Shown here piece by piece: positions 27,727 to 59,090 of a stretch of 64,000 nucleotides of DNA (positions within the stretch are counted from its first letter, which is position 1; each line of letters begins with the position of its first letter). The DNA comes from Chitinophagales bacterium (GTDB lineage Bacteria; Bacteroidota; Bacteroidia; Chitinophagales; JADIYW01): the NCBI GenBank assembly GCA_035515235.1, contig DATJBS010000031.1:53523-117522 (forward strand), in the 5' to 3' direction. The notes below the pieces were generated by a model. The model did not search any database and was not told the DNA's origin. It saw nothing but the letters and a program-made list of their open reading frames with translations. A program made the position numbers and the translations under genes.

Positions 27727-30700
27727 ATGAATTTCAACGAAGACTCCCGAGTTAAAATACCATCTATATTACATTTGATTCAGTTAGGGTATACCTATCT
27801 TTCTTTGAAGGATATTATTTGGGATGAAAATACTAATATTTTCTCTTCGATTTTTAAGGAACAACTCCAAAAAATTAATATAGGTTTATCTGATAAGGAT
27901 ATTCAAAACACATATGATGATATTTCAATCTCATTAGAGAACGAAGATCTAGGTAGAGCATTTTATAAAAAGTTGATAGATCAATCTGGAGTAAAATTAA
28001 TTGACTTTGAGAATTTTGATAACAACTCTTTTCATGTGGTTACAGAGCTGCCATATAAAAAAGATGATGAAAGTTTCAGACCAGATATTATTCTGTTAAT
28101 CAACGGAATGCCATTAGTTTTTATTGAAGTCAAAAAACCTAATAATAGAAATGGTGTAAGAGATGAGCATACTAGAATGCAAAGACGTTTTCAGAACAAG
28201 AAGTTTCGAAAGTTCATCAACTTGACCCAGCTCATGGTGTTTTCTAATAACATGGAGTATAGTGAAGAAGATACTCAAATGTTAGAAGGAGCATTTTATA
28301 GTACTACAAACTACAAAAAACCAATATTCAACTATTTCAGAGAGGAAGAAAACTTTGACCTTTCAAAGATTTTAAAGCCAATTTCAGAAGAGGAAGAAAA
28401 TTTTGTATTACAAGACACCAATCTCTTAAGTATTAAAAATTCTCAAGAGTATTTATCAAATAAAAATCCAACTAAAGCTACAAATTCGATTTCTACATCT
28501 TTATTTCAGAGAGACCGCTTAAAATTCATTTTACGTTACGCTTTTGCATATGTGGAGGAAGAGCAAGGTTTGGAAAAGCATGTCATGCGATATCCTCAGA
28601 TATTTGCAACGAAGGCAATAGAAACTAAATTAGAAAGTGGAATCAAAAAAGGTATTATTTGGCATACTCAAGGTTCTGGAAAAACTGCTTTAGCTTATTT
28701 TAATGTAAAACATCTCACGCATTACTATCAGAGAAAAAATATTATCCCAAAATTTTACTTTATAGTAGATCGCTTGGATTTATTAATTCAAGCTGCTAAG
28801 GAGTTTACAGCTCGAGGATTGTTAGTTCACAAAATAGATTCTAGGGAAGACTTTAGTAGAGATATTAAGTCCACTCAAGTGATTCATAATGATTCCGGTC
28901 TAGCTGAAATAACGGTGGTAAATATTCAAAAGTTTAAAGATGATCCTGATGTAATAAAAAACAACGATTACAACTTAAGTGTTCAGCGTGTATTTTTTCT
29001 AGATGAAGTACATAGAAGTTATAATCCTAAAGGAAGTTTTTTAGCTAATTTAGAATTGGCAGATAAGAATTCTATAAAAATTGGCTTAACAGGTACTCCG
29101 TTACTGGGGTCAGAATATAATTCTAAAACAATTTTTGGTGATTATATCCATAAATATTACTACAATCTTTCTATTAAAGATGGTTATACTTTAAGACTTA
29201 TTAGAGAAGAAATTGAAACTAATTACAAGTTAGCATTACAAGAAGCTCTTGAAAATATTAAAGTTTTACAAGGGAATATTGATAAAAAGAAACTCTATGC
29301 TGATGACCGTTTTGTAGAGCCTATGCTAGATTATATTGTAAAAGATATGGAGCAAGCTAGAATCTCGATGAATGATAATACTATTGGAGGAATGGTAGTT
29401 TGTGATTCGTCGGAACAAGCAAAAATGATGTTTGAAATTTTCAAAGATAATTATGCAATTCAATCTATGCCTTATTATGCTCAAGCAGCTGAAGAACAAG
29501 CAAGCTATGGCGAAAAGAAAAGAGGATCTAGTAAAGTAAAGACAGCACAGGTAATCTTACACGACGTAGGTACTCCGAAAGAAAGAAAAGATTGGGTGTC
29601 TGACTTTAAAGCTGGAAATATTGATTTGCTATTTGTATATAATATGTTGTTAACTGGTTTTGATGCCAAGCGATTGAAAAAACTGTATATCGGTAGGCAA
29701 ATTAAAGCTCATAATTTATTACAAACGCTTACTCGTGTAAATCGAACTTATAACTCACACAGATATGGTTATGTAGTCGATTTTGCTGATATTCAAAAGG
29801 AATTTGACAGAACCAATCAAGATTATTTTAACGAATTGCAAAGTGAGCTAGGAGATGAGATAGAACACTATTCTAAATTATTTAAATCTCCAGAAGAAAT
29901 ACAAGAAGAGATTGAAGAAATAAAGGACATTCTTTTTAGATACAATACTAAAAATGCGACAGTCTTTGGAGATCAAATTTCAGAAATAAACGACCTGAAA
30001 GAAATACGACTAATCGCAAAAGCTTTAAACAACTCTAAAGAACTGTATAACCTCATTCGTCTGTCTGGTAATTTTGAATTATTAGAGAAATTAGATTTTA
30101 GAAAACTATCTATTCTATCTAGATTAACTAATGACAGACTTGCACTTATTAATACTAGAATTGCATTAGAAAATAATGTAAATACAGATAGTATTTTAAA
30201 TACAGCTTTAGAAGATGTGATTTTTGCTTTCACAAAAGTGAAAGAAGAAGAAATGGTTTTGGCGGATGAGCTAAAAGATGTTTTGGGTAAAACTCGTGAA
30301 ATATTAGCAGGCAATTTTGACCAAAGAGATCCAATATTCATTTCGCTTAAAGAAGAATTAGAACGCTTATTTAAAAAGAAGAATCTAACCGAAGTGACTA
30401 AGGAAGAAATGGAAGCTAATATTAAAGCTTTAGATGCCATTTACGATAAAGCAAAAAAACTTGAACGGGAAAACGAATTGCTGAAAGCTAAATACGATTA
30501 TGACGCCAAATATGCACGAATTCATAAGCGATTAATGGAAAAAAATCCATTGACAGAAAGTGAACGCAAGCTATTTGAAGCTTTAAAAGGTTTGAAAACT
30601 GCAGTAGATAAAGAAATCATGCAAAACTCGAAGTTGTTAGAAAATGAGAGTTATGTAGAAAAAATGATGATGAGATTAGTTGTGAATCAATTTAAAAATG

Positions 30701-30795
30701 AACAAAAAATTGACATCAATACTACTGATGTAAGACGTATTAATAGTTTGATAGTAAAAGAATATATGAACGAATACAATGGCTATGTTGCTTAA
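27727..30795 (+). CDS. hsdR: Type I restriction enzyme R subunit
   Basis: N-terminal nuclease region (RPDIILLINGMPLVFIEVKKP, a PD..ExK motif). SF2 helicase motifs are HTQGSGKT, FLDEVHRS and LTGTP, and the length is 1022 aa. Confidence 0.9.
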   Translation: MNFNEDSRVKIPSILHLIQLGYTYLSLKDIIWDENTNIFSSIFKEQLQKINIGLSDKDIQNTYDDISISLENEDLGRAFYKKLIDQSGVKLIDFENFDNNSFHVVTELPYKKDDESFRPDIILLINGMPLVFIEVKKPNNRNGVRDEHTRMQRRFQNKKFRKFINLTQLMVFSNNMEYSEEDTQMLEGAFYSTTNYKKPIFNYFREEENFDLSKILKPISEEEENFVLQDTNLLSIKNSQEYLSNKNPTKATNSISTSLFQRDRLKFILRYAFAYVEEEQGLEKHVMRYPQIFATKAIETKLESGIKKGIIWHTQGSGKTALAYFNVKHLTHYYQRKNIIPKFYFIVDRLDLLIQAAKEFTARGLLVHKIDSREDFSRDIKSTQVIHNDSGLAEITVVNIQKFKDDPDVIKNNDYNLSVQRVFFLDEVHRSYNPKGSFLANLELADKNSIKIGLTGTPLLGSEYNSKTIFGDYIHKYYYNLSIKDGYTLRLIREEIETNYKLALQEALENIKVLQGNIDKKKLYADDRFVEPMLDYIVKDMEQARISMNDNTIGGMVVCDSSEQAKMMFEIFKDNYAIQSMPYYAQAAEEQASYGEKKRGSSKVKTAQVILHDVGTPKERKDWVSDFKAGNIDLLFVYNMLLTGFDAKRLKKLYIGRQIKAHNLLQTLTRVNRTYNSHRYGYVVDFADIQKEFDRTNQDYFNELQSELGDEIEHYSKLFKSPEEIQEEIEEIKDILFRYNTKNATVFGDQISEINDLKEIRLIAKALNNSKELYNLIRLSGNFELLEKLDFRKLSILSRLTNDRLALINTRIALENNVNTDSILNTALEDVIFAFTKVKEEEMVLADELKDVLGKTREILAGNFDQRDPIFISLKEELERLFKKKNLTEVTKEEMEANIKALDAIYDKAKKLERENELLKAKYDYDAKYARIHKRLMEKNPLTESERKLFEALKGLKTAVDKEIMQNSKLLENESYVEKMMMRLVVNQFKNEQKIDINTTDVRRINSLIVKEYMNEYNGYVA

Positions 30796-30845
30796 TGGGA
30801 ACTGATAAAGCAACTATCACAAAACAACAGAAGTTATAAAGTAAA

Positions 30846-31823
30846 ATGAAAGAACAAAACCAAATTGAAATATATAAATCTGATGATGGAGTAACCCAGC
30901 TAAAGGTTAATCTTCAAGATGAAACTGTTTGGTTAAATAGAAATCAACTTGCAGAATTATTTGATAGAGATGTAAAAACTATAGGTAAACATTTAACTAA
31001 TGTTTTTAAAGAAGGCGAATTAAGAAAAGAAGCAACTGTCGCAAAATATGCGACAGTTCAAAAAGAAGGAGATAGAGAAGTTACTAGAGATGTAGATCAT
31101 TATAATTTAGACGCTATTATATCAGTAGGTTATAGAGTTAAATCTCAAAGAGGAACACAATTTAGAATATGGGCAAATAAAGTATTAAAAGACTATTTAG
31201 TACAAGGTTATGCTATCAACCAAAAACGTTTAGAGCAAAAAGAACAAGAAGTAAAAATATTAAAAAGTGGTATTCAAATTTTAAGTAGAGCCATTGAAGA
31301 AAAAACTCAGGACAATCAATGGTTAGAAGTTTTTGCTAAAGGCTTAAGTTTGTTAGATGATTATGACCATGAGAGATTAGATGCAAAAGGTTTAACTACA
31401 AGAAAGGTCTATTATCCTAGTTTAGAAGATTATCAAGAATTAATAAATCAAATGTTGATTGAGTTCGATTCTGAAATTTTCGGAAAAGAAAAAGATAAAA
31501 GTTTTCAAAGTTCTATTGCTCAAATTGAAAAAGGATTTGATGAAAAGGATTTTTACCCAACTTTAGAAGAAAAAGCAACTATGCTTTTATATTTTGTGGT
31601 GAAAAACCATTCGTTTGTAGATGGAAATAAAAGAATAGCAGCAGCTTGTTTCCTTAAGTTTTTACAACAAAACAACATGCTTTTTAATAGTCTACAAGAA
31701 CCAATAATTAGTAACGATACATTAGCAAGTTTGACGCTTTTTATAGCCTCAAGCAAACCAGAAGAAATGCAAACCGTAACGCGATTAGTAATTAGCGTAT
31801 TAAACAGAAACAACAAAAATTAA
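30846..31823 (+). CDS. RhuM-like N-terminal domain fused to a Fic/Doc-family domain (Doc-type motif HSFVDGNKR)
   Basis: N-terminus DGVTQLKVNLQDETVWLNRNQLAELFDRDVKTIGKHLTNVF...ISVGYRVKSQRGTQFRIWANKVLKDYL is RhuM-like. The motif cat tcg ttt gta gat gga aat aaa aga lies at 31608-31634. Confidence 0.75.
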   Translation: MKEQNQIEIYKSDDGVTQLKVNLQDETVWLNRNQLAELFDRDVKTIGKHLTNVFKEGELRKEATVAKYATVQKEGDREVTRDVDHYNLDAIISVGYRVKSQRGTQFRIWANKVLKDYLVQGYAINQKRLEQKEQEVKILKSGIQILSRAIEEKTQDNQWLEVFAKGLSLLDDYDHERLDAKGLTTRKVYYPSLEDYQELINQMLIEFDSEIFGKEKDKSFQSSIAQIEKGFDEKDFYPTLEEKATMLLYFVVKNHSFVDGNKRIAAACFLKFLQQNNMLFNSLQEPIISNDTLASLTLFIASSKPEEMQTVTRLVISVLNRNNKN

Positions 31824-31842
31824 TGTAAAGGAATTCTAAATA

Positions 31843-33468
31843 ATGACAAGTACAGCACAATTTGAAACTCAAACCAAAGCACTGATAGACGATCTCAAAA
31901 GTGTCTGTGCTAATTACGGCTTGGGAAATGACGGGAACGAGTTTAAGATAATCACTCAAGTATTTTTATATAAATTCCTAAATGATAAATACGTTTATGA
32001 ATTAAAACAACTAGAACCAGATTTAGCAAAAGCAGAAAATTTTGATGAAGCACTTCTGAGCTATTCCGACGACGATTTGGAAATGCTAACCATGCAAATC
32101 AGTGAAAACACCGCTTATATTGCTCCCAAAAACTTACTATCTCGTTTATTCGAGCAACAAAACAAATCTAATTTTGCAGATATTTTTGATGAAACCTTAG
32201 TCAGTGTAGCCAAAGACAATATCGATATTTTCTCTGTGCTCACGCAAGGAGGCGAAAAAGTTGTTTTATTTGAAAACCTAAGCAAATACGTCACCGATAA
32301 TAAAGATGCATTTTGTAAAGCTTTAGTGAATAAGCTCGTAGGTTTTAGCTTTGAGCAAATATTTACACAGAAGTTTGATTTTTTTGCCACCATTTTTGAA
32401 TATTTAATCAAAGATTATAATACCAACTCAGGCGGTAAATATGCAGAGTATTTTACACCTCACGCCGTAGCTAAAATTATGGCTGCTTGTTTGGTAACGA
32501 GTGATGATGTGAATAATGTAACCTGCTATGATCCAAGTGCGGGATCCGGAACTTTATTGATGAACCTTGCACATGCTATCGGAGAAGATAAGTGTACGAT
32601 TTACTCACAAGATATTTCTCAAAAATCTTCTTCTTTATTGCGTTTAAACCTGATTTTAAACAATCTCGTACATTCTATACAAAACATCATACAAGGCAAT
32701 ACTATCTTAAATCCATATCACAAACAAGAAGATGGACAGCTAGAAAAGTTTGATTATATCGTATCAAATCCACCGTTTAAGCTAGATTTTTCTGATTACA
32801 GTGCAGATTTAGATTCTAAGGCGAATAAAGACCGCTTTTTTGCAGGAATACCTAATGTGCCGAAAGCCAAGAAAGATTCCATGGCGATTTACTTGCTGTT
32901 TATTCAGCATATCATGTTCAGCTTGACAGACAAGGGGAAAGCGGCTATCGTAGTGCCTACAGGATTTATCACCGCACAATCGGGTATCGATAAATCTATT
33001 AGAGAGAAATTAGTAGAACATAAAATGCTTGCAGGCGTAGTCAGTATGCCTTCTAATATATTTGCTACTACAGGAACGAATGTCAGCATTTTGTTTTTGG
33101 ATAAAACCAATAAGAAAGACGTGGTCTTGGTAGATGCTTCTAATTTGGGCACCAAAGTAAAAGACGGTAAAAATCAAAAAACGGTATTGAGTGCAGATGA
33201 AGAACAACAAATAATTGATGTCTTCAATGCTAAAACAGCCCAAGAGGATTTCTCTGTGGTGGTGACTTATGAGGAACTCAAAGCGAAAAATTACAGCCTA
33301 AGTGCAGGACAGTATTTTGACGTAAAAATCGAATATGTAGATATTACACCTGAAGAGTTTACAGAGAAAATGAAAGCTTTTGAAAGTAATTTAGAAAATC
33401 TTTTTGCAGAGTCTAAGAGTTTAGAAAATGAAATTCAAGAAAATTTGAAAAGTTTGAGGTATGTCTGA
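31843..33468 (+). CDS. hsdM: Type I R-M N6-adenine DNA methyltransferase M subunit
   Basis: DPSAGSGTLL is the SAM motif I and IVSNPPFKL is the NPPF catalytic motif IV. It overlaps hsdS by 8 nt (ATGTCTGA). Confidence 0.9.
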   Translation: MTSTAQFETQTKALIDDLKSVCANYGLGNDGNEFKIITQVFLYKFLNDKYVYELKQLEPDLAKAENFDEALLSYSDDDLEMLTMQISENTAYIAPKNLLSRLFEQQNKSNFADIFDETLVSVAKDNIDIFSVLTQGGEKVVLFENLSKYVTDNKDAFCKALVNKLVGFSFEQIFTQKFDFFATIFEYLIKDYNTNSGGKYAEYFTPHAVAKIMAACLVTSDDVNNVTCYDPSAGSGTLLMNLAHAIGEDKCTIYSQDISQKSSSLLRLNLILNNLVHSIQNIIQGNTILNPYHKQEDGQLEKFDYIVSNPPFKLDFSDYSADLDSKANKDRFFAGIPNVPKAKKDSMAIYLLFIQHIMFSLTDKGKAAIVVPTGFITAQSGIDKSIREKLVEHKMLAGVVSMPSNIFATTGTNVSILFLDKTNKKDVVLVDASNLGTKVKDGKNQKTVLSADEEQQIIDVFNAKTAQEDFSVVVTYEELKAKNYSLSAGQYFDVKIEYVDITPEEFTEKMKAFESNLENLFAESKSLENEIQENLKSLRYV

Positions 33469-34766
33469 ATTCATTAATATTGAAATTGGTGACTTAGGTC
33501 TTACCATAACTGGAAAAACACCTTCATCAAAGTTTCCTCAAGATTTTGGTAAAAAATATATGTTTATAACGCCAAGTGATGATTTTGATAATAAAACGAT
33601 ATTTCAAACGAACAGATATTTATCTGAAATAGGTCTTAAAAAATTAAAAAACAAAATACTCCCCTCGAAAAGTGTTCTTGTTTCATGTATAGGCTCAGCA
33701 ATGGGAAAAATTACAATGAATAATAGCACAGCTATTACAAATCAACAGATAAATTCGATTGTTGTTAATTCTGAATATTATGATGCAGATTATATTTATT
33801 ATCAATTAAAAAATAATTATAAATTATTAAGGACAGCTGCATTAGGAAGTACTGCGTTGCCAATGTTAAATAAAACTGAATTTGATAGATTAAAATTAAC
33901 CATACACAAAAACCTTCAAACCCAAAAACAAATCGCCAAAGTTCTTTCTGATTTAGATGCTAAAATAGAAGTCAATAATAAAATCAACCAAGAGCTAGAA
34001 TCGATGGCAAAAACGTTGTATGATTATTGGTTTGTGCAGTTTGATTTACCCTTCGATTTTGTTCAAAATAAACCAGATATCAATGGTCAACCTTATAAAT
34101 CCTCTGGCGGTAAAATGGTTTATAATGAGGAATTGAAACGAGAGATTCCTGAGGGTTGGAATTGCGGAACAATATTAGATTGCGCAGATCTATTTGGAGG
34201 AGGAACTCCAAAAAAAGAAATAAATGCATATTGGAATGGTAAAATACCATTTTTTACTCCAACAGATATAGAAAATAACGTTTTCTGTCTTGAGACAATT
34301 CTATATACTAATAAATTAGGAATAAGTAAGAGATAAAGGAACTATTTTAATAACAGCAAGAGGAACCGTTGGTAAAATTAATATTACAGGAAAGCCAATG
34401 GCTATGAACCAATCTTGTTATGCATTAAAACCAAAGAATGAATTTAGTTCAGAGTTTATATACTTTCATACAGATCAAATTGTAAAATTTTTAAAAGCTA
34501 AATCTAGTGGTTCTATATTTAAAGCAATAGTTACAAATGATTTTAAATTTACTCCAACTGTTATTCCTTATGTTCAAATAGTAAAGTTATATACTCAAAA
34601 CACTTTTGCAAATTTTGAAAAAATTTTAAATAATAAGAATCAAAACCAAAAACTCGTTGAACTCCGCGATTGGTTATTGCCGATGTTAATGAATGGTCAA
34701 GTAACTATCAAAGAAGCAGAAGAGCAAATCAGAATCGCAGCTGAGCCGAGAGCATCTTATGGATAA
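33461..34766 (+). pseudogene. hsdS: Type I R-M specificity subunit, interrupted by a +1 frame change near 34326-34334
   Basis: The first frame ends ...TNKLGISKR-TAA at 34334-34336. The next frame, open from 34326, reads VRDKGTILITARGTVGKINITGKPMAMNQSCYAL, the conserved TRD2 core. The tracked ORFs 33461..34336 and 34398..34766 are two pieces of one gene. Confidence 0.8.
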
Positions 34767-53713: not shown

Positions 53714-55177
53714 TTATCGCAAATCCAAATCCTTAATTTCAATACCTAATGCTTGAGCAACACCTTCTCCGTAGGCAGCATCTGCCTTGTAGCAATTGGT
53801 AATATGTCTTTCTTGAATAAATCTTTCAGCTCCACCAACTTCGCAAGCAGTGTTTTCAAACAAGATTTGTTGTTGCTTCTTATTCATTAACCTAAATAAG
53901 TTGCCCGGTTGGGTATAGTAATCTTCATCTTCTCTATGGTCATAATGAAAAGCAGCACCTTGAAGTTCTAAGGCAGGTTCAGCAAACTCTTTTTGTTCTT
54001 GCCACTGTCCATAGCTATTTGGCTCATAGTGGATTGTAGCGCCTTCGTTGCCATCTACACGCATTGCGCCGTCACGATGTGGATTGTGAAAAGGACACTT
54101 AGGTTTGTTTACAGGAATTTGATAGTGATTGACACCTAATCTATATCGCTGTGCATCGCCATAAGAAAATAGACGCCCTTGTAGCATTCTGTCTGGAGAA
54201 AATCCTATTCCTGGGACTACATTTGCAGGATTAAAAGCAGCTTGCTCTACATCTGCAAAATAATTTTCAGGATTTCTATTGAGTTCCATAATTCCTACAT
54301 CTATCAAAGGATAATCTGCATGTGGCCAAACTTTTGTCAAGTCAAATGGATCAAAGCGGTAGGTGTGTGCGTCTGCTTCAGGCATAATTTGAACTTTTAG
54401 TTTCCATTGAGGGAAATCGCCTTTTTCAATAGCCGTAAATAAGTCTCTTTGATTACTTTCTCTATCATGACTTATAATTGCTGCTGCTTCGTCATTGGTT
54501 AAGTTTTGAATTCCTTGTTGACATACAAAATGAAATTTCACCCAATGTCTTTCATTATTAGCATTGATAAAACTAAAAGTATGACTGCCAAAGCCGTGCA
54601 TATGTCGATAAGATTTTGGAATACCTCTGTCGCTCATGACGATAGTCACTTGATGAAGAGCTTCGGGTAAAAGTGTCCAAAAGTCCCAGTTATTATTTGC
54701 ACTTCGAAGATTGGTTTGTGGATCGCGTTTAACGGCTTTATTGAGATCTGGAAATTTATACGGATCTTTTAAAAAGAAAACAGGAGTATTGTTACCTGCT
54801 AAGTCCCAATTACCTTCTTCTGTATAAAATTTGAGAGCAAAACCTCGGATATCTCTTTCGGCATCTGCTGCACCTCTTTCTCCGGCTACTGTGGAGAAAC
54901 GAGCAAACATTTCAGTTTTCTTCCCAATTTGAGAAAATATTTTTGCTTTTGTGTACTGTGAAATATCGTGCGTCACTGTAAATGTTCCAAATGCTCCCGA
55001 ACCTTTGGCGTGCATTCTTCTTTCAGGAATGACTTCTCTGTCAAAGTGTGCTAGTTTTTCTAGAAACCAAAAGTCTTCTAAAAGCATTGGACCTCTTATT
55101 CCGGCAGTTTTTACATTTTGATTTTCAGCAATCGGTCTTCCAGAAACCGAATTTAGTTTTTTCTTTTCTTCAGACAT
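53714..55177 (-). CDS. monofunctional heme catalase (small-subunit type)
   Basis: [33 protein letters not shown] and [14 protein letters not shown]. Length is 487 aa. Confidence 0.97.
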
Positions 55178-56210: not shown

Positions 56211-56490
56211 AATTTTTAAATTTGTTTTATCAAAAAACGGATTTTAATCGTCCAAGATTTTTGATAAAAAGAGTGGAAGGTTTGTTAATCTTATGAAGTC
56301 ATTTCAAGAATTCTGCTCCTGAAAAGATACTATCATTTGATACACTCAAAAATATGAAAAACAAAGGTATTTAACTGTTTTATTCGTACAACTGTACTGA
56401 ATTATAATACAGTTTGGGTGATAATAAAGAAAAATGCCTCATTCTTAAATAATAAAAGAAATGAAGCCTAATTATTTAATCATAGGTTAT

Positions 56491-56838
56491 TTAATGCTTA
56501 CGGCAGCAGCCATCCAATTTAGCAACTGATTCTGCAGGAGCTTTCATATCATCAGCATCGTAACCTGCATTGTTTATTGTTTTTCTGATAGCATCAGGAT
56601 GAATTTTATTGGCATCATAATCCACTGTAATAGTGTTCGCTTTAGCATCAATTTTCACTTTTTTTATTCCTTTGTTGGATCTCACATTGATATTAATATT
56701 GTTTCCACAACTACCGCATTGAAGACAATGGTCACAATAAATTTGTGTTTCTATTACAATAGTTTGAATGTTTGAGTTTTTTGCAAACACGCTACTAGAA
56801 AGTGCAGTTAATAATAAAGTGAATATGATTTTTTTCAT
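56491..56838 (-). CDS. secreted heavy-metal-associated (HMA)-like domain protein
   Basis: Signal peptide, a YCDHCLQCGSCGNN Cys cluster, an HMA-like core (ITVDYDANKIHPDAIRKTINNAGYDA), and a C-terminal GCCRKH. Confidence 0.65.
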   Translation of the reverse strand: MKKIIFTLLLTALSSSVFAKNSNIQTIVIETQIYCDHCLQCGSCGNNININVRSNKGIKKVKIDAKANTITVDYDANKIHPDAIRKTINNAGYDADDMKAPAESVAKLDGCCRKH

Positions 56839-56909
56839 AGTTTGTTATTGTTAATTATTTAGATTTTGAATCCAAAAGCCAAAATACTTTTGTTCTTAAA
56901 ATTTTGAAA

Positions 56910-57281
56910 TTATATGGACATTTCTTGAAATTTCTTTCTGAATTCTAGTGGGCTTTTAATGTTAGGAAATACTTCTTTTGTTCCACCTGAACCTACAATA
57001 CTTAGAGATCCGTAGCCAAGAATTCTACCTAAAATACTTTGATCTACATTAACGCTTTCAATTTTTGAATGGTTCATTTCAAATGTTTTCCTGCTAATTA
57101 ATCCAGTTTTAATGATCACTCGTTTATTAGTGACTGCAAATTCGTCTGTATATCTAGCAATTAATGGTATTGTGAATAACGAAAAAATGGCTTTAAAGCT
57201 ACAGAAGATGATCCAATGATAGGAGGTTTCTAACTCTACGTGTTCGTTTTTAACTAGATTGCTATTGATGTAATGGCCCAT
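56910..57281 (-). CDS. bPH_2 (YdbT/DUF304-like) membrane PH-domain protein
   Basis: Two N-terminal TM segments, then TNKRVIIKTGLISRKTFEMNHSKIESVNVDQSILGRILGYGSL. Confidence 0.7.
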   Translation of the reverse strand: MGHYINSNLVKNEHVELETSYHWIIFCSFKAIFSLFTIPLIARYTDEFAVTNKRVIIKTGLISRKTFEMNHSKIESVNVDQSILGRILGYGSLSIVGSGGTKEVFPNIKSPLEFRKKFQEMSI

Positions 57282-57352
57282 TTTTTAAGATATAATTCCT
57301 TGAATTTACGATGTAATATTGTTTTATTCTATTTTAATTTATTGATGAGCTT

Positions 57353-57882
57353 TTACTTTTCACAAATAGAGCAATTGGATTCTCCAGTTAAATGTCCATT
57401 TTTATCAAATTCATATTTACAACATTCGTTGAATCTTTTCTTTAAAATTTCTTTTACTCTTCTAATTCTTACTTTTACATTTTCAAGACTGATGTCTAAT
57501 GTGGCTGCTACCTCTTTTTGTTTTAGGCCTTTTATATAAACTAGTTCAATCACTTCTTTGTAAATCTCGGGCAGTTCATTGATGAATTTATCAAAACAGC
57601 AGATATGTTGATATTGTTGAAGAGCGATCTCTTGATTGCTGTCTATTTCGTCTGTATATACAGTTTCATTATTGAAATAATTGATGATTTCATTTCTTGC
57701 AATTTGAAAACCCAAGCTCTCACTTTTTCTTCATTTTTAAGACTAGAAAGATTTAAATGAATTTTCAAAAAAGTATTTTGGAAAACATCATTTGCAGCAT
57801 TTTTACTCTTTACCTTTTTAAGGATAAAAAAGTAAAGTTCTTGATTGTAATTATTCCAAATCGTTTGCGTTTCCATCTTCAA
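57353..57882 (-). pseudogene. ECF-type sigma-70 factor with a Cys-rich C-terminal extension, split by a 1-nt frameshift in an A4/T4 run (57707-57710)
   Basis: The region-2-like N-terminal ORF (57643..57882) ends ...EEKVRAWVF. The region-4-like C-terminal ORF (57353..57715) starts GFQIARNEIINYF. One extra T restores W-V-F-Q-I-A-R-N. The tail reads CCKYEFDKNGHLTGESNCSIC. Confidence 0.75.
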
Positions 57883-57916
57883 AAATAAATAAAGCTTAGC
57901 CCTCAGACTAAGCTTT
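57881..57916 (-). terminator. hairpin plus T-rich tract between the Cys-rich small ORF and the sigma gene
   Basis: aaagcttag/ctaagcttt 9-bp stem (57891-57899 and 57908-57916). The minus-strand continuation is atttattttt. Confidence 0.5.
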
Positions 57917-57925
57917 TAGAAATTA

Positions 57926-58036
57926 TCAACATTCACATTTTGTACATTCGCATTTATCACAAGGACATTCGCTTTCTTTACAATTTTTGCAATTACATTT
58001 TGTGCAATCACAATCGGTACATTTACATTTTCCCAT
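57926..58036 (-). CDS. untracked 36-aa cysteine-rich (13 Cys) metallothionein-like small ORF
   Basis: Manual translation of the minus strand gives MGKCKCTDCDCTKCNCKNCKESECPCDKCECTKCEC-stop. It has a regular CxC/CxxC pattern, lies in the same orientation as the sigma gene, and is followed by a hairpin. Confidence 0.45.
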   Translation of the reverse strand: MGKCKCTDCDCTKCNCKNCKESECPCDKCECTKCEC

Positions 58037-58115
58037 AACAGTAGTTTTTTATTGTTCATTAAGGAGACAGTAGAAGACTAGAAAAGATACATTATTTTTG
58101 ATTTTGTCTTGCTTT

Positions 58116-58137
58116 CATCCAAAATATAATTTGGATG
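58116..58137. promoter_or_regulatory. perfect palindrome catccaaa-N6-tttggatg upstream of the Cys-rich ORF (candidate operator)
   Basis: Read directly. It lies 80-100 nt upstream of the ATG at 58036. The function is inferred only. Confidence 0.25.
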
Positions 58138-58160
58138 GTCGTTATGCTTATAAACAGTTT

Positions 58161-58335
58161 GCTCCTACGGAGCTAGTTTGATGATGATTCTTTTTGGTTT
58201 ACAAACGGTTGGGCTTCTACGGAGCTAGATTGGTGGTGTTTTTCGTTTGCAAAAAAGTATGGTTCCTACGGAGCAGAATTGAGTTTTCACTTTTAAAAGG
58301 CTTTGTTTAAGTTTTTTTATTACTCTGTAGGAGCT
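58161..58335. repeat. REP-like hairpin cluster, 3' side of the RAYT gene
   Basis: gctcCTACggagc at 58161-58173, gcttCTACggagc at 58213-58225, gttcCTACggagc at 58262-58274 and an inverted ctctGTAGgag at 58324-58335. Most carry a (t)tacaaacNgt flank. Confidence 0.85.
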
Positions 58336-58351
58336 AACTGTTTGTTCTGCT

Positions 58352-58813
58352 TTATTCAATCCATTCAAAGAGATATTTTTCATTGTATTCAATTTCATAT
58401 CTTTCTAACATGTCAATATATTCTTTCTTGAATGTTTTGGCTTTATGGTGTTCTTCTTGATTCAATATATACTTGACCACATAATCTATTTGGCTTTTAG
58501 CATATGAAAAAGCGCCATAACCTTCTTGCCAATTGAATTTACCCATTATCCAATTATTGTCATTAATGTATTTGGAGGAGCCTGCCTTAATATCTCTTAC
58601 TAAATTAGAAATTGAAATGTCTGGTTTCATACCCAACAAAATATGAACGTGGTCAGGCATTGCAAAAATTGCTAACATTTTCTGATCTCTATTTTGGACT
58701 ATACCTGTAATGTATTTATGTAATTCTTCTCTCTTGTTTTTTGAAATAAAATTTTGTCTTCCTTTTACGGCAAATACAATTTGGATATAGATTTGGGTGT
58801 AGGTGTTAGGCAT
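58352..58813 (-). mobile_element. IS200-like Y1 (HUH) transposase of the REP-associated (RAYT) type
   Basis: HUH motif in MPDHVHILLG. The conserved C-terminal region YILNQEEHH is present. The gene is 153 aa, a single gene with no tnpB, and is flanked by hairpin repeats. Confidence 0.8.
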
Positions 58814-58834
58814 ATTTGTTGATTTTAATAGGTC

Positions 58835-59090
58835 GCTCCTCCGGAGCTAGATTGGTGGTGGATGCTTTTTGGTTACAAACCGTATGCTCCTACGGAGCAT
58901 AATCGAATTGATAATTTTAAATGTGCAAATCTTATAATTCTAATTTACAAACAAAATTTCATTTTTATCAATAAACGGCATCAGACATACGGGGCTGAAT
59001 TGATTGTATTTTTTGTTTTTATGTATTGTTTGAATAGGTGTTCTTCATTATTGCTCCGTAGGAGCACACCGTTTGTAGCTCCGTAGGAGC
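58835..59090. repeat. REP-like hairpin cluster, 5' side of the RAYT gene
   Basis: gctcctCCggagc at 58835-58847, gctcCTACggagc at 58886-58898, and gctccGTAGgagc at 59053-59065 and 59078-59090. The string ggagctagattggtggtg recurs at 58221-58238 and 58843-58860. Confidence 0.85.

Follow-up and report, generated by a model that had tools for sequence, protein, structure and literature searches.

A 64,000-nucleotide stretch of the genome of a Chitinophagales bacterium (GenBank assembly GCA_035515235.1, contig DATJBS010000031.1, positions 53,523 to 117,522 of the forward strand), hereafter the window, carries on its minus strand a very short open reading frame (ORF) crowded with cysteine codons, followed by the gene for an extracytoplasmic function (ECF) sigma factor and then by genes for a bPH_2-domain membrane protein and an exported HMA-domain protein. 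An earlier note on this DNA had joined these four genes and a palindrome upstream of them into a string of five co-oriented elements, and had suggested a compact metal- or thiol-stress module. All five elements exist and lie on the minus strand, but only the micro-ORF and the sigma gene form a conserved unit, and the best explanation of the locus is a two-gene cassette, not a five-element string. The micro-ORF does have the 36 codons and 13 cysteines that had been counted in it, while two features had been overlooked altogether, namely a hairpin at 57891–57916 and a promoter-like box at 58063–58091 (Table 1).

Evidence for the cassette comes from searching one genome of each species for sigma factors related to this one; 543 stretches were confirmed, of which the best 80 were kept, and they belong to Flavobacteriales, Cytophagales, Chitinophagales and Saprospiraceae, with sigma identities of 55–76%. 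Co-occurrence was scored outward from the sigma loci, that is, in the direction from sigma to peptide. A micro-ORF lies directly 5' of the sigma gene in every one of 82 related Bacteroidota loci (sigma 55–91% identical), usually with its start 160–163 nt ahead of the sigma start, and in this respect the linkage of the two genes proposed in the earlier note is borne out. All-against-all clustering of the neighbouring ORFs found no family other than sigma in more than 8 of 83 loci. Peptide and sigma also duplicate as one unit, which is seen in two genomes: Aequorivita sp. CIP111184 has two complete cassettes about 16 kb apart on the same contig (L045 and L053), and Salegentibacter sp. 24 has two complete cassettes in the same genome (L029 and L081).

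Two distant loci carry the cassette further afield. In L213, which belongs to Balneolaceae, the peptide is 41 aa long and stops 3 nt before the sigma ATG with no hairpin between them, and the promoter variant, GAATCCTTT-N13-ATCTAC, has a spacing identical to that of the main box described below; in L216, a metagenome contig of 49% GC, the peptide lies 200 nt upstream of sigma and its promoter reads GCGTCTTTT-N13-GTCTCC. An upstream peptide is absent at two relatives named SigZ, from Marinifilaceae and Chloroflexota, and therefore the cassette, judged from the sequences compared, marks off, within the SigZ family, one subclade with members in at least two phyla. A plasmid collection yielded only relatives of about 30% identity. 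We regard the anatomy of the cassette and its conservation as established. No description of a peptide–sigma cassette was found in the literature searched, the coverage of which was incomplete and leaves an earlier description elsewhere possible.

The peptide has 35–41 codons across the related loci, one of which uses a TTG start, and in the 82 it follows the pattern M-x2-CxCxxCxCxxCxCxxC-x4-CxCxxCxCxxCxCC. Among 69 distinct 37-codon versions the cysteine codons are kept in 966 of 966 cases, with TGT and TGC interchanging (585:381), and codon-position entropy (0.46, 0.45 and 1.02) is about twice as high at the third position as at the first and second. The non-cysteine codons have a dN/dS of about 0.35, and Thr7 is encoded by four different codons. 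The residues between the cysteines are N, K, T, D, E and S; Phe amounts to 0.1% (a single one in the 69 sequences) and His is absent. Because of the cysteine retention, the third-position entropy and the dN/dS of about 0.35 we read the micro-ORF as protein-coding, and on this codon evidence, which we take to establish its coding nature, it is a translated gene whose product is important as a protein. In the window the last peptide codon is TGA where relatives have TGT, so that the peptide ends one cysteine short.

Neither Pfam, NCBIfam nor the PDB holds a family match for the peptide, and none of 19 peptide versions occurs in a collection of 15 billion proteins. Gene callers annotate in its place an overlapping 47-aa wrong-frame ORF (MNNKKLLLWENVNV...; 57916–58059, minus strand), and this false product is present in a public protein collection (P0446) from which the real peptide is missing; in L216 the gene called across the peptide runs on the opposite strand. 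A metagenome scan with the cysteine-codon pattern (TGY at the family spacing) returned 120 loci, all of which were TGY microsatellites or poly-Cys artefacts, and none with a sigma gene.

By composition the peptide resembles metallothioneins, whether eukaryotic or bacterial (SmtA/BmtA, MymT): it is tiny, its 14 cysteines in 37 residues (38%, where metallothioneins have about 30% or more) form CxC, CxxC and CC arrays in two 7-Cys halves, its spacers are hydrophilic and it has almost no aromatic residues. The likeness is metallothionein-like in composition only. No membership of a described metallothionein family was found, the best match, to Metallothio_Euk, coming from 1 of 28 members with E 6.6, and no metallothionein in the PDB matched. 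The peptide differs from metallothioneins also in having no His and in its obligatory linkage to an ECF sigma gene, whereas the control of known bacterial metallothioneins lies with repressors of the ArsR/SmtB or CsoR/RicR type.

Upstream of the peptide ATG stands the box TGTATCYTTT-N13-GTCTMC, present in 81 of the 82 loci, and in L073 too. Its GTATC-to-GTCNNC span is always 28 nt, and its end lies 25–27 nt from the peptide ATG in 78 of the 81; L213 and L216 keep the spacing with the letters of the -35 and -10 altered. The 64-kb window contains a single exact match, where 0 are expected, and matches with three mismatches occur at chance level. In its hexamers and 17-nt spacer (TGTATC-N17-GTCT) the box resembles ECF promoters, not promoters of the Bacteroidota housekeeping type. 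One extra match, in a flank of L041, was dismissed as lying inside a gene on the opposite strand. Directly 3' of the -10-like box (window 58054–58062) there is a further box, TTAATGAAC, that is conserved in most loci; it was rejected as a coupled upstream ORF, its ATG being often GTG, TTG or missing, and from its sequence it probably marks the transcription start or acts as a discriminator.

In the window a hairpin of -13.6 kcal/mol (z -2.8) separates the stop codon of the peptide from the ATG of sigma. A 10-bp stem with a T-run at this place is common to 61 loci, in which compensatory changes are found at all 10 stem pairs. The spacer is usually about 38–64 nt long; it reaches 160–260 nt in five loci (L216, L012, L025, L046 and L081), and in L082 it is reduced to 27 nt with no predicted hairpin. 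A terminator between peptide and sigma is frequent, not universal. The long spacers of the five loci fold very stably (-41 to -66 kcal/mol), and in L012 (3740–4001) an insertion of some 210 nt in the loop seems to have driven apart the halves of the usual terminator stem. A comparison of 56300–58500 with Rfam yielded no relevant match. In 33 of 76 loci the motif TAnnTTTG, which is the -7 box of Bacteroidota housekeeping promoters, ends exactly 3 nt ahead of the ATG of sigma, a placement seen for 5.7% of other ORFs, and the sole such box on this strand between 56400 and 58200 is the one that precedes sigma. It may represent a second promoter that overlaps the terminator tail and gives a basal, nearly leaderless sigma mRNA.

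The earlier note had recognized the ECF sigma factor, whose sigma2 and sigma4 domains are confirmed by Pfam, and had missed that its gene is frameshifted. A 1-nt deletion in a T-run at about 57707–57711 (TGGGTTTTCAA in the window, TGGGTGTTTCAA in the closest relative) breaks the gene into overlapping ORFs, 79 and 120 aa long. Repair gives a sigma of 174 aa, with identities of 91% to P0001 and 89% to P0002, both of them intact; in tblastn its 5' part, residues 1–59, is found at 97%. Because 56491–58140 is base-for-base identical in two separate Logan assemblies (L203 and L204; SRR8931197 and SRR8931198), same frameshift included, the deletion is very probably real; gene callers report only the 120-aa fragment in both. 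Programmed -1 slippage at U UUC, which could in principle bring back the reading frame, was rejected in favour of an inactivating deletion, since the sigma genes of relatives are intact and no stimulatory element was seen. As the sequence stands, the sigma factor is probably inactive in this genome, unless a second copy lies elsewhere, and with the sigma gene frameshifted and the peptide minus its last cysteine, the cassette in this metagenome-assembled genome (MAG) looks to be decaying.

Repaired, the sigma factor matches Sigma70_r2 (E 4.7e-9), Sigma70_r4_2 (E 4.3e-13) and Sigma70_ECF, and it has the sigma2 and sigma4 domains only, as is proper to ECF (group 4) sigma factors, which are about 170–200 aa long. 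SigZ is by far its best family in NCBIfam (E 5e-43), at scores short of the equivalog cut-offs (NF007215/TIGR02959; 147.2 against 212 bits, and 140.5 against 168.65). Six cysteines do not vary among 26 homologues: the linker contributes C93 and C94, as an invariant CC in the sequence HICCFDKF, and the tail C152, C153, C169 and C172. Of these, C94 and all four in the tail are nearly universal among 150 representatives of the wider SigZ superfamily. The tail had been given as CC-x17-C-x2-C, which the alignment corrects to CC-x15-C-x2-C. No anti-sigma gene lies near sigma, either among the ORFs of the window or among the shared neighbours of related loci, as the earlier note had said for a classical one.

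These features lead to a described group. ECF238 merges ECF24 and ECF44, holds both SigZ and the metal-dependent CorE2, and is characterized by a Cys-rich C-terminal extension of about 20 aa, linker cysteines in some members and no anti-sigma (PMC7826278). Its description reports a conserved context in one subgroup only, no anti-sigma association and no conserved promoter (bioRxiv 10.1101/2019.12.11.873521, supplementary text). The Cys-rich C-terminal extension, the linker cysteines and the lack of an anti-sigma gene nearby are all found here, and by these described group features the sigma factor is placed as SigZ/ECF238-type, a placement by sequence that we consider established; the module could not be matched to any described system in the earlier note, and its sigma factor at least is SigZ-like with features of the group that holds SigZ and CorE2.

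Within that group the closest functional comparison is with CorE and CorE2 of Myxococcus xanthus (formerly ECF44), whose activation by Cu or by Cd/Zn requires two elements, a CxC in the linker and a Cys-rich domain at the C-terminus (PMC4937300, PMC6851896). The CxC is strictly conserved in CorE-like sigmas (PMC6851896, PMC8999054), and CorE signatures are missing from 85% of ECF238 (PMC8999054). The sigma factor described here is like CorE and CorE2 in having no anti-sigma, a linker Cys pair and a Cys-rich C-terminus, and its CC-x15-C-x2-C spans 21 residues, within the length of 21–50 given for the CorE-like domain. It differs in its linker CC, against CxC, and in its tail, against C-x4-C-x2-C-x-C in CorE and CC-x3-C-x2-C-x-C in CorE2 (PMC9023288); no Cys-rich peptide gene is reported for CorE or CorE2, and the phylum is another. 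SigZ of Bacillus subtilis (NF007215/TIGR02959) is alike in giving the best profile, in one linker cysteine and CC...CxxC, and in having no known anti-sigma; it differs in the scores, which fall below the equivalog cut-offs, in the two SigZ-named relatives without peptide, and in the published account of ECF238 as a group without autoregulation. OrbS of Burkholderia cenocepacia and the ZAS anti-sigmas (RsrA type) share Cys-based metal or redox control of an ECF sigma, in OrbS through an on-board tail; OrbS differs in that metal inhibits, Fe(II) switching it off via the Cys tail (PMC9023288). By analogy, this sigma factor probably works like a CorE-type sigma without membership of ECF44, and the earlier suggestion of a Cys-rich tail serving as on-board sensor is, on the same analogy, the best reading of it. 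To our knowledge only the myxobacterial CorE-type members are understood within ECF238, which is a large group.

Table 1. Features of the peptide–sigma locus and its surroundings; positions are counted from the first letter of the window.
Feature	Position	Strand	Description
Palindrome	58116–58137	.	Perfect 8+8; probably incidental, outside the conserved cassette
ECF-type promoter-like box	58063–58091	-	TGTATCTTTT-N13-GTCTCC, 26 nt 5' of peptide ATG
Micro-ORF	57926–58036	-	36 aa, 13 Cys, MGKCKCTDCDCTKCNCKNCKESECPCDKCECTKCEC; family norm 37 aa, 14 Cys
Intrinsic-terminator-like hairpin with T-rich tail	57881–57916	-	11-bp stem 57891–57916, from terminator scan; tail ATTTATTTTT
Possible TAnnTTTG promoter box	57880–57887	-	TATTTTTG, inside the T-rich tail of the hairpin
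Sigma gene, 5' part (sigma2 region)	57643–57876	-	Probable start ATG 57876; 57643–57882 in the ORF list
Sigma gene, 3' part, other frame	57353–57715	-	End of sigma2, CC linker, sigma4, C-terminal CC-x15-CxxC
bPH_2 membrane protein, 123 aa	56910–57281	-	Pfam PF03703; lineage-specific neighbour
Exported HMA-domain protein, 115 aa	56491–56838	-	Pfam HMA; lineage-specific neighbour
Hairpin then U-run, 3' of HMA gene	56437–56467	-	Fold -10.1 kcal/mol, z -2.3

The reading that we favour, with a probability of about 0.5, is that the cassette encodes, by analogy with these systems, a self-regulating metal- or thiol-sensing sigma factor and a metallothionein-like peptide that acts as its negative-feedback buffer; the signal, the autoregulation and the role of the peptide are what we infer. 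The ECF-type promoter would drive the 37-codon gene for a cytoplasmic, metallothionein-like 14-Cys peptide, which would be followed in most lineages by a leaky terminator hairpin and then by the SigZ/ECF238-type sigma gene. The linker Cys pair and the CC-x15-CxxC tail would form a built-in sensor, the thiolates of which, on the precedent of CorE, CorE2 and OrbS, would bind a thiophilic metal or register the oxidation of thiols, and their state would switch the working of sigma with RNA polymerase. Active sigma would read its own promoter and, because the terminator precedes the sigma gene, the outcome would be mostly peptide with slightly more sigma. The peptide would take up the metal or oxidant, may compete with sigma for it, and would lower the signal, giving negative feedback. 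The fixed-distance linkage in 82 of 82 loci, the invariant spacing of the box, the purifying selection, the covarying hairpin and the six sigma cysteines all support this model.

Several points weigh against it. The promoter is a putative target of this sigma, and the group is one described as not autoregulated (bioRxiv 10.1101/2019.12.11.873521); a search of the window and of about 650 kb of flanking sequence gave no extra promoter-box sites, and with them no further regulon sites. The CxC that defines CorE between sigma2 and sigma4.2 is replaced by CC. An AlphaFold2 model of the sigma factor has a mean pLDDT of 67.8, which falls below 50 in the linker and tail, and among solved structures none covers the Cys tail. 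The metal response, binding and transcription steps are drawn by analogy. Lastly, an unbroken linkage to sigma over such distances exceeds what a mere output would need, and in L213 genes 3 nt apart with no hairpin are more typical of a stoichiometric partner.

A partner of this kind is what the foremost alternative proposes. The peptide could be the cognate regulator of the sigma factor, either a metal- or redox-loaded mini anti-sigma or an obligatory partner, that would dock on the linker and tail, both rich in cysteine, by sharing metal ligands or forming disulfides, or would transfer metal to or from the six-Cys site; we hold this possible but give it the lower odds of a tentative proposal. 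Linkage of 100% over 82 loci and two distant clades is the pattern usual for sigma/anti-sigma pairs, and to it may be added the pairwise duplication of the cassettes (L045/L053 and L029/L081), the 3-nt gene distance in Balneolaceae and the lack of any other conserved candidate regulator. The published classification found no anti-sigma, and an unannotated peptide would have been invisible to it. What speaks on the other side is the peptide itself, which at 37 aa is too short and unlike any anti-sigma domain. ZAS anti-sigmas are about 100 aa long with HxxxCxxC and an anti-sigma domain; the peptide has neither, having no His, hence no HxxxCxxC, and no anti-sigma family match. It also lies upstream of sigma and, given the terminator in most loci, would be made in large excess.

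A second alternative would make the micro-ORF a cysteine-sensing leader, in which the speed of the ribosome over 14 Cys codons sets hairpin formation and thus sigma expression. Fourteen Cys codons in 37, and in most loci a hairpin with U-run that extends from a few nt after the stop to just before the sigma ATG, are what such a device would look like, and attenuation at a poly-Cys short ORF has a precedent in the mycobacterial polycysteine leaderless short ORFs, which are likewise unannotated Cys-rich first cistrons with RNA structure next to them (bioRxiv 10.1101/834739). Those, however, have consecutive Cys codons in an otherwise free sequence and Cys-metabolism genes downstream, whereas here the cysteines keep strictly fixed distances, selection conserves the residues between them (dN/dS about 0.35, Thr7 with four codons) and the gene downstream is a regulator, the sigma factor. 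The hairpin is absent from L213 and far off in L216, the spacers of L216, L012, L025, L046, L081 and L082 deviate from about 38–64 nt, and no alternative antiterminator pairing was seen at the 3' end of the ORF, by reading rather than computation. We consider a leader of this kind improbable.

The two remaining genes of the string stand outside the conserved system and are downstream additions of this lineage only. Their identities are as earlier reported: the PH-domain protein scores 61.2 bits with bPH_2 (PF03703; gathering threshold 22, E 1.1e-16) and the HMA protein 40.5 bits with PF00403 (gathering threshold 24.8, E 3.7e-10), the latter having a signal-peptide-like N-terminus, CDHCLQCGSCG and a terminal GCCRKH; by their coordinates the last two intergenic gaps are indeed 71 nt each. 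The HMA protein is 100% identical to a database protein from a 'Chitinophagales bacterium' MAG. It has the HMA fold of MerP/CopZ-type proteins and a signal-peptide-like N-terminus as in periplasmic MerP, but scores below the cut-offs of the MerP (33.9 against 92.55) and CopZ models and belongs to a Bacteroidota subfamily in which CxHCxxCxxC, invariant in 21 homologues, replaces GMxCxxC, and in which a C-terminal LDGCC is also invariant.

The order sigma–bPH–HMA is found only in the window, L001 and L002 (sigma 89–91% identical), and in none of the 80 other sigma loci is there a bPH_2 or HMA homologue within 4 kb. Because neither gene has a promoter box of its own in the window, both 71-nt gaps are unstructured and a hairpin after HMA possibly ends a sigma–bPH–HMA transcript, bPH and HMA are probably transcribed with sigma in this lineage. 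In L001 (893–1260) the bPH_2 gene is frameshifted, appearing as two tblastn pieces with only a 55-aa gene called, and the accessory genes of this lineage look unstable too. An intact catalase gene (487 aa, 53714–55177, minus strand) lies downstream in the window and in L001, and was not found close to sigma in the wider set of loci.

The earlier note had taken all four genes for one metal/thiol-stress module in which the PH-domain protein or the sigma tail would act as anti-sigma and the HMA protein as output. Co-orientation across the 71-nt unstructured gaps, the lack of TAnnTTTG before bPH or HMA, the hairpin after HMA, the order kept in L001 and L002, and HMA homologues that elsewhere accompany metal efflux genes are all in its favour. 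The co-conservation of the four families, on which the note had let its proposal depend, was examined: bPH_2 and HMA are missing within 4 kb in 80 of 80 other loci, bPH is frameshifted in L001, neither gene is preceded by the promoter box, and the HMA homologues (57–80% identity) have unrelated surroundings, among them a place next to DUF3703 and one flanked by RND efflux and P-type ATPase genes. An anti-sigma role for bPH_2 was likewise rejected, as none of the 80 loci carries it. The module survives only as a lineage-specific operon, and a real functional tie among its genes is hardly to be expected.

The palindrome, CATCCAAA-N6-TTTGGATG, is present as claimed. By our estimate about two palindromes with 8-bp arms and this loop length are expected by chance in 64 kb at 33% GC; it is conserved in neither L001 nor L002, and the 36 nt in which it falls, in a region of REP-like repeats, match the 5' end of the neighbouring IS200-like gene at 81% identity. 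Being at chance level and not conserved, it has no claim to be a functional element and is probably incidental. The neighbouring gene (58352–58813, minus strand) encodes an IS200-like/REP-associated tyrosine transposase (Pfam Y1_Tnp, E 1.4e-25) and is flanked on both sides (58153–58345 and 58827–58899) by five palindromic REP-like units, GCTCCTACGGAGC, with conserved flanks; transposase and repeats together look like a REP/RAYT arrangement. In L001, too, a REP-like unit lies just upstream of the cassette. Elsewhere in the window, at 27727–34766 on the plus strand, large genes resemble a type I restriction-modification system, as judged from ORF starts only, in which an ORF resembling a specificity subunit is seemingly split (33461–34336 and 34398–34766).

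The peptide–sigma cassette bears first on how ECF238 is described. Given the 37-codon gene, three statements made of that group, on anti-sigma association, genomic context and promoter, fail for the Bacteroidota/Balneolaceae branch, the first of them only on the alternative, which we rate as possible though unlikely, that the peptide has an anti-sigma role. Gene callers miss the 37-codon gene or call the wrong frame or strand, and unannotated micro-ORFs can in this way conceal the partner of a supposedly stand-alone regulator. The cassette represents a new family of bacterial Cys-rich micro-proteins together with a candidate promoter/sigma pair, and its carriers include cultivable marine flavobacteria that are open to experiment. 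Among the cultivable carriers whose cassette is intact are Polaribacter irgensii 23-P, Cellulophaga baltica DSM 24729, Aequorivita nionensis and Kaistella flava. Were the peptide a direct regulator of its sigma factor, the pair would constitute a new class of sigma regulator and would offer the first functional handle on SigZ-type sigmas.

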